Assembly: GCA_964515545.1 (NCBI GenBank)
Contig: CAZERI010000003.1
Coordinates: 88,246-152,245, forward strand
Source of the DNA: an uncultured Gammaproteobacteria bacterium
GTDB lineage: Bacteria > Patescibacteriota > Microgenomatia > Levybacterales > UBA12049
DNA length: 64,000 nt
Reading direction: 5' to 3'
The notes beneath the pieces were generated by a model that saw nothing but the letters and a program-made list of their open reading frames with translations, was not told the origin of the DNA and ran no database searches. Positions 43,169-44,296 of the stretch are shown here, one piece after another (positions within the stretch are counted from its first letter, which is position 1; every line of letters starts with the position of its first letter). The translations under genes were made by a program, and so were the position numbers.

Positions 43169-44296
43169 ATGTTGGATACTGCTCTCCCGACAATTACTCC
43201 ATCAAACACACCCCCTGCAGATCTTTCTGATAAAGGTGAGTCTGTAGATCAGATTAGAAAACTGGGTGAACGGGTAGAAAAGACAGAACTTCCTGATCTT
43301 CTCAAACAAAACCTCCTAGAGCGAATCTCACGATTAGCTCTTATTAGAGCAAGTGCCGGATTTATGAGTGCTAATTACATCTTGGAATATGAAAATACCT
43401 CAACGTATGTAAATTGGATAGTCGGTCTTCCATGGCAGAGACAGAGCGCAGATACACTAGACCTAGTTAAAGCCAAACAAATTATGGATAAAAATCATTA
43501 CGGGTTAGTTACTATTAAGGAAAGAATATTAGACTACCTAGCAACTCTTATTTTGAATATGAAAGAAGGTAATCACAAAGCAGTTCAAAGAGCGCCAATC
43601 CTCTGCTTAGTAGGGTTGGCAGGAACTGGAAAAACAACGTTAGCTAAGTCTATTGCAGAAGCATTAGGGAAGCAGTTTGAACGTATTCCCTTTGGAGGAA
43701 TGGCAGATTCAAGGGCGCTGCGCGGACAGTCCAAAGCATTTCCTGATAGTGAGCCTGGATATGTTATCAAGAAACTCTTCCATGCTCAGACAAGTAATCC
43801 AGTGATGCTCTTGGATGAATTAGATCGTGTTACTGAATCTGCACGAGCTGATATCATGGGTGTTTTAGTCGAGTTATTAGACCCTGAGCAGAACTTTGCT
43901 TTTACTGATCATTACATAGATTATGCCTATAACATGTCAAATGTGTTATTTGTCGCAACAGCAAATAATACAACTAATATCTCAACAGCAGTCCTTGATC
44001 GTCTAGAGATCATTCAGATGCCTTCCTATACAGACGAGGAGAAAATTGTGATCGCGAAAGTTTATCTATTTAACAAAATTAGAAGTGAAGCGGGCCTTTC
44101 AGAACAACAGCTGGTGATTGATGAAGCAGTATGGCCTGGAATCATTAGACCATTGGGATTTGACTCTGGGATTCGTTCGCTGGAACGTACCATTGAAGGA
44201 ATGTGTCGGCGTGTTGCTCGGCGGATTGTAGAAGGAAAGGTGCAGACTGTTAGGATAACAGATATGAATCTAAAAGAGTTTTTACCGACATGGTAA
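43169..44296 (+). CDS. Lon-like AAA+ ATPase module lacking the S16 peptidase domain
   Basis: Aligns by eye with Lon from the coiled-coil/linker ([41 protein letters not shown]) through Walker A (GLAGTGKTT), Walker B (MLLDELDRV), LEVLDPEQN-like ([16 protein letters not shown]) and sensor-2 ([16 protein letters not shown]). It stops exactly at the AAA+/protease boundary. Confidence 0.75.
   Translation: [375 protein letters not shown]

Follow-up and report, generated by a model that had tools for sequence, protein, structure and literature searches.

Lon is, by its textbook definition, a single chain in which an AAA+ motor is fused to a peptidase. The 2022 classification likewise places both ATPase and protease domains in all Lons, and its definitions of LonB, LonBA and LonC include the protease (P) domain in every case, with a membrane anchor in the AAA+ domain for LonB and degenerate ATPase motifs for LonC (PMC9569914). 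Human LONP1 also has a chaperone-like, anti-aggregation activity for which ATP hydrolysis is needed and protease activity is not, according to one report (PMC8368198). Here we describe a gene that departs from this architecture, found in a 64,000-nucleotide stretch of contig CAZERI010000003.1 (the window, whose own numbering is used throughout). The gene occupies 43169..44296 on the forward strand, with an ATG start and a TAA stop in the list of open reading frames (ORFs), and its 375-amino-acid product is a Lon-type AAA+ module consisting of a 3-helix bundle, the large AAA+ subdomain and the Lon lid. We propose, with moderate confidence, that this stand-alone Lon-type ATPase would be a hexameric, ATP-hydrolysing and non-proteolytic remodeller or chaperone-like factor derived from Lon.

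Pfam, NCBIfam, the Protein Data Bank (PDB) and fold matches agree on the identity of the module, in line with the original prediction, which had aligned the product with Lon from the helical linker preceding the AAA+ domain through the complete AAA+ module. The Pfam matches in the product are AAA at residues 145-283 and Lon_lid at 307-357, with neither Lon_C (S16) nor LON_substr_bdg among them. The TIGR00763 'lon' model is matched over positions 247-570 of 795 (E 2.5e-96) at 323.9 bits, which falls short of the cut-off of 608.05 because both ends of Lon are missing from the protein, and NF008053 scores 253.5 bits against a cut-off of 891. The predicted absence of the N-terminal LON domain is thus evident both from the lack of a LON_substr_bdg match and from the start of the TIGR00763 match near position 247. 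In the PDB sequence search B. subtilis LonA (3m6a) comes out on top with an E-value of 1.7e-74, and all strong matches are LonA. With E-values of 1e-75 to 1e-96, the resemblance to Lon is well beyond what chance would give. An AlphaFold2 model (predicted local distance difference test, pLDDT, 86; predicted template modelling score 0.78) is disordered only at residues 1-25; a fold search with this model returned LonA chains for all of the top 50, and it superposes best on 6n2i, the AAA+ domain of E. coli Lon on its own (TM-scores 0.82/0.90, root-mean-square deviation 2.3 Å). The product stops at ...KEFLPTW, the point in the alignment where Lon runs (F/Y)LG into its S16 domain, so that the end at the S16 boundary was also correctly placed by the original prediction.

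The chain opens with a disordered and weakly conserved tail (residues 1-25, 43169..43243; pLDDT below 50; this and the following features all lie on the forward strand). It is followed by the N-terminal 3-helix bundle, the LonA NTD-3H (residues 25-86, 43241..43426), assigned from the model and the Lon alignment, with model helices at 25-38, 43-63 and 68-86. The large alpha/beta subdomain of the AAA+ module (residues 99-284, 43463..44020; Pfam AAA, model and LonA fold matches) contains Walker A (residues 149-157, 43613..43639), a remodelled pore loop 1 (43721..43759), Walker B as VMLLDELD (43802..43825, with LLDELD at residues 214-219), the pre-sensor-1 beta-hairpin region that is a hallmark of the HCLR clade (43880..43942), the sensor-1 residue N266 (43964..43966) and R278, the arginine finger that acts in trans, in VLDRLE (44000..44002). 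The Lon-type lid, or small alpha subdomain (residues 289-371, 44033..44281; Pfam Lon_lid, alignments and model), carries the sensor-2 residue R336 in SGIRSLER (44174-44176), and comparison of homologues defines a C-terminal tail, EFLPTW-COOH (44276..44293). Relative to LonA the AAA+ module has no insertion, such as the membrane anchor of LonB, and its ATPase motifs are not degenerate.

All residues for ATP binding and hydrolysis are kept in the stand-alone family. K155 and T156 of Walker A, D216 and E217 of Walker B, N266, R278 and R336 are invariant in alignments of its members, the last three corresponding to Lon N473, R484 and R542 (mapped through PMC7239648). The original prediction was right that both Walker motifs are present and wrong to read SGIRSLER as sensor 2 and arginine finger together; this motif supplies sensor 2 only, and the finger is R278. 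The pre-sensor-1 hairpin is retained as LDPEQN...DHYIDY, with strands in the model where they are expected and with E240, Y249 and D251 equivalent to Lon E447, Y456 and E458. Y80 and W83 correspond to Y294 and W297, the residues of the 3-helix bundle against which the hairpin packs in Lon (PMC7239648); Y80 is invariant in A1 and conserved in at least 90% in A2, and W83 is invariant in A2 and conserved in at least 90% in A1. The hairpin, the sensor-2 arginine in the lid and the arginine finger acting in trans place the protein in the HCLR clade. Since a trans-acting finger makes sense only in an oligomeric ring, a Lon-like, ATP-hydrolysing hexamer would be the natural expectation.

The loop with which Lon holds its substrate has been rewritten. 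In substrate-bound Lon, Y398 and I399 grip the polypeptide, braced by R395/R396-E458 (PMC7239648), and full-length Lons carry this loop as RGHRRTY(I/V)GxxPG, with Y followed by I, V or L in 59 of 61. Pore loop 1 of the window protein, defined by alignment with 30 full-length Lons and by family statistics, reads S188-K189-A-F191-P192-D193-S-E195-P-G: F191-P192 replace Y398-I399, S188-K189 replace R395-R396, and the acidic D193-x-E195 is new. Among 198 family members, a sample weighted to close relatives of the query, the tyrosine position is occupied by F in 116, Y in 21, H in 18, L in 10, S in 9 and R in 7, and more rarely by E, N, Q, M, V, T, D or I; in the Roizmanbacteria clade it is S, T or Q. 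The acidic motif (D/E)(A/S)E-PG is present in about 96% of the same members, and the family consensus is S-K/R-x-F-P-D-A-E-PG with a variable F. The polypeptide-translocase element of Lon has been swapped for a different, acidic element that is itself conserved, a change overlooked in the original prediction. With the threading pincer Y398/I399 (PMC7239648) replaced by F-P here, and by non-aromatic residues in many members, the earlier suggestion of a stand-alone unfoldase is weakened. Four of five defining features of a Lon protease are lacking: the S16 domain, the N-domain, a score above the family cut-off and the tyrosine pore loop.

This architecture is shared by a large family. In a first homologue search, the best 120 public matches listed (69-100% identity) are 357-451 amino acids long, one 320-residue partial sequence aside, contain AAA and Lon_lid only, and derive from Patescibacteria or Levybacteria wherever the source is named. 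A further search that started from a member with 50% identity yielded at least 120 more clusters of 344-386 residues from Roizmanbacteria/Microgenomates, so that at least 240 protein clusters of stand-alone architecture are found among the matches listed. Clustering at 50% leaves many representatives (350-670 residues); no Lon_C or N-domain was detected in any of ten divergent representatives scanned at this level, those with names being Dojkabacteria, with one Woykebacteria locus besides. The lineages with the family are Levy-, Roizman-, Woyke- and Dojkabacteria, and where names exist it is confined to candidate phyla radiation (CPR)/Patescibacteria of the Microgenomates type. Intact homologues across the 84 loci related to the window gene are all about 330-430 residues long. 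Other members have N-terminal extensions that are variable or Q/P-rich; the terminal extensions of divergent members were considered as possible remnants of Lon domains and rejected, their sequence being Q/P/S-rich and of low complexity. A contig scan with the single window protein recovered four close relatives, the other matches being ordinary full-length Lons.

When the AAA+ modules were placed in a neighbour-joining tree, the stand-alone proteins separated as one clan from a set of 30 full-length Lons, with support from 100 of 100 bootstraps and with mean identities of 59% within the clan, 56% within the full-length Lons and 41% between the two. The ratio of non-synonymous to synonymous polymorphism (pN/pS) for the stand-alone gene is 0.19-0.27, with synonymous sites saturated, and the gene is under purifying selection. 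From the bootstrap clan, its internal diversity and the suppression of non-synonymous change it follows that the domain losses are ancient, that the family is large, old and monophyletic, and that the gene has been maintained by selection. Two contigs of GTDB-representative metagenome-assembled genomes labelled 'uncultured Gammaproteobacteria', L004 (CAZDTO010000005.1) and L007 (CAZXPY010000001.1), carry the CPR-type gene at 71% and 46% identity, respectively, and in L004 it sits in the CPR-type gene order infB-rpsO-pnp-gene as well; the label is probably wrong for both.

The missing domains are not hidden nearby. Hidden Markov models (HMMs) of S16 and of the Lon N-domain were built from 30 full-length Lon representatives and run on every stop-to-stop segment in six frames of the window, the flanking contigs and the 84 related loci. 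Nothing was found in the window and the 92 other loci in all (best E 0.16; N-domain model alone, E above 0.1 at all loci searched), and the same models gave 1e-70 to 1e-97 on full-length Lon loci as positive controls, the S16 model scoring 1e-87 to 1e-97 there. The S16 and LON N-domains have been lost cleanly, leaving no remnants at the loci searched, and a separate S16 or N-domain gene nearby was rejected on the same evidence. The gene is also present, nucleotide-identical and in the same gene order, in three independent assemblies from different sequencing runs, which answers the concern over assembly around 44296. Identical assemblies, hundreds of homologues of the same length and the absence of remnants, including any downstream in-frame continuation into S16, show that the gene is not an artefact and confirm that it is not the product of a simple frameshift, as had been predicted.

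As a non-proteolytic remodeller, the protein would assemble into a Lon-like hexameric ring and hydrolyse ATP, would have given up the processive threading of polypeptides into a degradation chamber, and would keep alone what may be viewed as the protease-independent 'chaperone half' of Lon, devoted to ATP-driven remodelling. Clients would probably be engaged through the acidic axial loops and the collar formed by the 3-helix bundle. For most lineages, the genomic company of the gene suggests a link with a string of RNA-processing and translation genes (pnp, rnj); for Roizmanbacteria it suggests one with the GroES/GroEL chaperonin. Among the functions offered by the original prediction, a chaperone would be the best fit. 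Several points weigh against this proposal. The oligomeric state and the ATPase activity are predicted from sequence alone. F191 is still aromatic in the window protein and its closest relatives, where some threading ability may persist, and the conserved aromatic LPxW-COOH end of the Levybacteria-like proteins might serve to dock a partner ring. The pnp/rnj and groESL neighbourhoods are circumstantial and differ by lineage. Finally, there is no CIRCE (controlling inverted repeat of chaperone expression) element near the gene, the sole one in the window lying at hrcA (19364-19390, 2 mismatches). Heat-shock control of the gene through HrcA and CIRCE was rejected for this reason and because none occurs in the groES-gene spacers of the Roizmanbacteria loci.

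A partner ring would be central to the main alternative, in which the protein contributes the ATPase to a split Lon, a protease of two components, and docks, in the manner of ClpX or HslU, on a peptidase ring encoded elsewhere, perhaps through its (F/Y)LPx(W/Y) tail. We regard this as rather unlikely, even though several features are consistent with it. The protein ends exactly at the junction between the Lon lid and the P domain, the ATPase ring residues are intact, and the tail shows strong conservation among the best 120 homologues listed and is kept in the Levybacteria-like clade. ClpX and HslU, the other unfoldases of the HCLR clade, are established cases of an ATPase that stands alone and docks on a separate peptidase; in HslU and the proteasomal ATPases the docking is via C-terminal tails. 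However, no S16-, ClpP- or HslV-like sequence was found in any frame of the 64-kb window, of its flanking DNA or of the 84 related loci with 8 kb to either side, and no peptidase of any kind recurs among the conserved families of clustered neighbours within five genes. The aromatic pore-loop residue that would feed a peptidase is not conserved, and the Roizmanbacteria clade lacks the tail, its members ending in ...EY(L/I/M). The original suggestion of pairing with a protease encoded elsewhere thus finds no support among the roughly 90 loci examined; the LPxW tail may simply cap the face of the lid that lies under the P domain in Lon.

The genomic neighbourhood bears on a second alternative, an accessory role in RNA metabolism. 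In the window, a CPR-style housekeeping region runs nusA-infB-(352-residue protein)-rpsO-pnp-gene-rnj-ftsK. Directly upstream of the gene, after a 48-nucleotide gap, lies pnp (40709..43120, forward strand), encoding a polynucleotide phosphorylase (PNPase) of 803 residues; directly downstream, in another reading frame as had been noted and after a gap of 13 nucleotides, lies rnj (44310..46040, forward strand), encoding an RNase J of 576 residues, both identified by Pfam. In the window, a terminator scan found nothing terminator-like that would separate pnp, the gene and rnj from one another, and promoter consensus scans there gave matches at background and no support for a separate transcription unit. 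Among the 84 related loci, 66 are informative for pnp, which is the next gene upstream in 38 of them and lies no more than two genes away in 46, mostly with gaps of 2-65 nucleotides; rnj lies at most three genes downstream in 46 of 74 loci, and a gene for a family-4-type uracil-DNA glycosylase (UDG) is often inserted before it. The predicted placement between pnp and rnj is therefore conserved in most lineages and not in all: in ten Roizmanbacteria loci the stand-alone gene is divergent from groES-groEL, and the Woykebacteria-like loci offer yet another gene context.

On this evidence the protein could be a degradosome-like partner of PNPase and/or RNase J that remodels or regulates them via basic tails or acts on ribonucleoproteins (RNPs), an explanation that we consider unlikely and that can also be viewed as a special case of the remodeller proposed here. 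Besides the adjacency and the lack of terminators, it draws on the Arg-rich tails of the adjacent PNPases, which would be electrostatically complementary to the acidic pore loop. Against it stand the loss of synteny in the Roizmanbacteria (groESL context) and Woykebacteria-like loci and the nature of the region itself: nusA-infB-rpsO-pnp ... rnj-ftsK is a long co-directional housekeeping block, so that the adjacency to pnp and rnj may be historical, and UDG or other genes are often inserted before rnj.

The PNPase tails follow the S1 domain and are disordered, 27-121 residues long and Arg-rich, with a net charge of +2 to +13. That of the window PNPase (42800-43120) has 107 residues and contains SDHPLAQQFRRER; tails are also present at L004, L087, L089-L091, L096, L097, L109, L113, L118, L121, L122, L124, L128, L134 and L135. 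Recurring motifs are HPL(A/S)xQF(R/K)RER (HPLxxQF(R/K)RER) or SGPHFP(T/A)SRL, and these are possible docking peptides. In a more specific and quite improbable version of the RNA-related explanation, the axial loops would have changed from an aromatic 'paddle' to the conserved acidic motif and would grip such Arg-rich disordered tails in place of any unfolded chain, on the upstream PNPase or on other RNA-processing or ribosomal proteins; the protein would then use ATP to regulate or assemble an RNA degradosome specific to CPR bacteria. Spastin and katanin grip the acidic tails of tubulin, and the acidic loop in this role would be their electrostatic mirror image.

Two further explanations can be dismissed briefly. 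A mis-assembled, frameshifted or pseudogenised lon, suggested only by the prior expectation that Lon is a single-chain ATPase and protease (PMC9569914), was rejected as next to impossible in view of the identical assemblies, the equal-length homologues, the missing remnants, the invariant catalytic residues, the low pN/pS and the intact RNase J gene that follows immediately. Equally improbable is an origin in another AAA+ family that merely resembles Lon (TRIP13/Pch2-like, the defence ATPases DolB/IetA, or MoxR/RuvB-like): the weak secondary matches to TRIP13 (PDB E 1e-8) and PADLOC DolB (33.9 bits) compare with 254-324 bits for the Lon models and no more than 38 bits for all others, the Lon-specific lid is found, the signature residues of the NTD-3H and pre-sensor-1 hairpin are retained, 50 of 50 top folds are LonA, and the neighbourhood is housekeeping with no defence island. 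An anti-phage defence ATPase was rejected likewise, as DolB is the best PADLOC match, the rest are generic P-loop matches, and the context is one of housekeeping genes.

Additional features of these loci were recorded. In the Roizmanbacteria spacers of L144 (7898-8009), L146, L150, L153 and L163, a conserved element, TTGTCAAG-N(10-30)-TTAGTCTGCTAA, sits immediately upstream of the stand-alone gene and may act as a promoter or operator for both this gene and the divergent groES-groEL. The rnj ORF of the window has some 30 extra N-terminal residues (44310-44400) compared with homologues that begin near 'M..LSFIPLGG'. Because these homologues start later, the true rnj start may lie downstream of 44310, at an internal ATG (Met-12) or beyond, and the gap to the stand-alone gene would then be wider. 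The 352-residue protein between infB and rpsO (39330-40388, forward strand) has no Pfam match; it is conserved in 36 related loci, has a Q/R/P-rich linker and the C-terminal peptide SDW(L/F)TPK(V/I)Y(K/Q)G, and occupies the slot of rbfA, nrnA or truB in other bacteria.

A proteostasis block lies 10-24 kb upstream of the gene (19354-24869 and 29923-36564). It comprises hrcA with its CIRCE, grpE, dnaK, a PHP-domain protein and dnaJ, and continues with a 916-residue ClpB/ClpC-type protein (Clp_N and double AAA), an 800-residue protein with only a ClpB-D2-like AAA domain and an adjoining VWA-domain protein. Two long ORFs have no confident Pfam domain: one of 1342 residues (25851-29879, forward strand) with a faint DUF3144 match, and one of 785 residues (54461-56818, reverse strand) that adjoins a sortase gene and could encode a surface protein or a substrate of the sortase.

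The family is a natural, widespread and evidently selected exception to the Lon architecture, in which the motor stands alone and its substrate-gripping loop has been rewritten. In the open-access literature we found no paper on Lon in CPR/Patescibacteria/Microgenomates, nor on a natural protease-less Lon. The names 'ATP-dependent Lon protease' and 'Lon protease' are attached to many database entries for these proteins; such naming is wrong for the stand-alone proteins and would inflate the proteolytic capacity inferred in CPR metabolic reconstructions. The hosts have minimal genomes, and each retained gene is likely to matter. If the protein is indeed a non-proteolytic remodeller, it would offer a natural separation-of-function Lon for the debated protease-independent chaperone activity, and would inform our view of protein or RNP quality control in ultra-small symbiotic bacteria.

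Multiplied motors were seen among other Lon-type proteins. P0121 (1113 residues, Candidatus Dependentiae) and P0124 (1233 residues) have three tandem AAA modules and after them a single Lon_C, and may be described as 'triple-motor' Lons; of these two, only P0121 has three Lon_lid matches. Together with P0125, P0127, P0137, P0144 and P0150 (3865 residues, Elusimicrobia), they are very long proteins with 2-5 Lon-type AAA+ matches; in P0144 several AAA/Lon_lid modules occur without a Lon_C.

Compared with LonA (MEROPS S16; TIGR00763; E. coli and Y. pestis Lon, B. subtilis LonA, human LONP1), the stand-alone protein is about 40% identical through the shared modules and keeps the 3-helix bundle, the AAA+ domain and lid, Walker A and B, sensors 1 and 2, the arginine finger, the pre-sensor-1 hairpin and the Y294/W297-Y456 packing. 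Unlike LonA, it has no S16 Ser-Lys peptidase, no LON N-domain or coiled coil, belongs to a separate clan, reads S(K/R)x(F/var)P(D/E)(A/S)E in place of RRTY(I/V)G, and scores about half the family cut-off. With ClpX and HslU it shares a stand-alone HCLR AAA+ module of similar size, the pre-sensor-1 hairpin and intact ring-dependent ATPase residues and, with HslU, a conserved C-terminal tail, in one clade only. ClpX and HslU retain the aromatic residue of the pore loop, and each has a peptidase partner of its own, usually encoded next to it (ClpP, HslV), whereas here the sequence is of Lon type, the aromatic residue is not conserved, and no partner gene was found at the loci searched. The definitions of LonB, LonBA and LonC do not describe it either, as it has no P domain, no insertion in the AAA+ module and intact ATPase motifs. 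The chaperone-like activity of LONP1 is a precedent for AAA+ ATP hydrolysis that suppresses aggregation without proteolysis (PMC8368198); there the activity belongs to a full-length enzyme with its N-domain and tyrosine pore loops, and here it would be the sole, putative function of a truncated protein whose pore loops differ. Another protein derived naturally from Lon is LonC of Meiothermus taiwanensis (PMC3391209, PMC13069640), a Lon-like protease that has no ATPase activity, so that the motor and the peptidase no longer go together there either. LonC may be viewed as the mirror image of the family described here: it has kept the protease with a dead ATPase, while the stand-alone proteins have kept a seemingly live ATPase with no protease.

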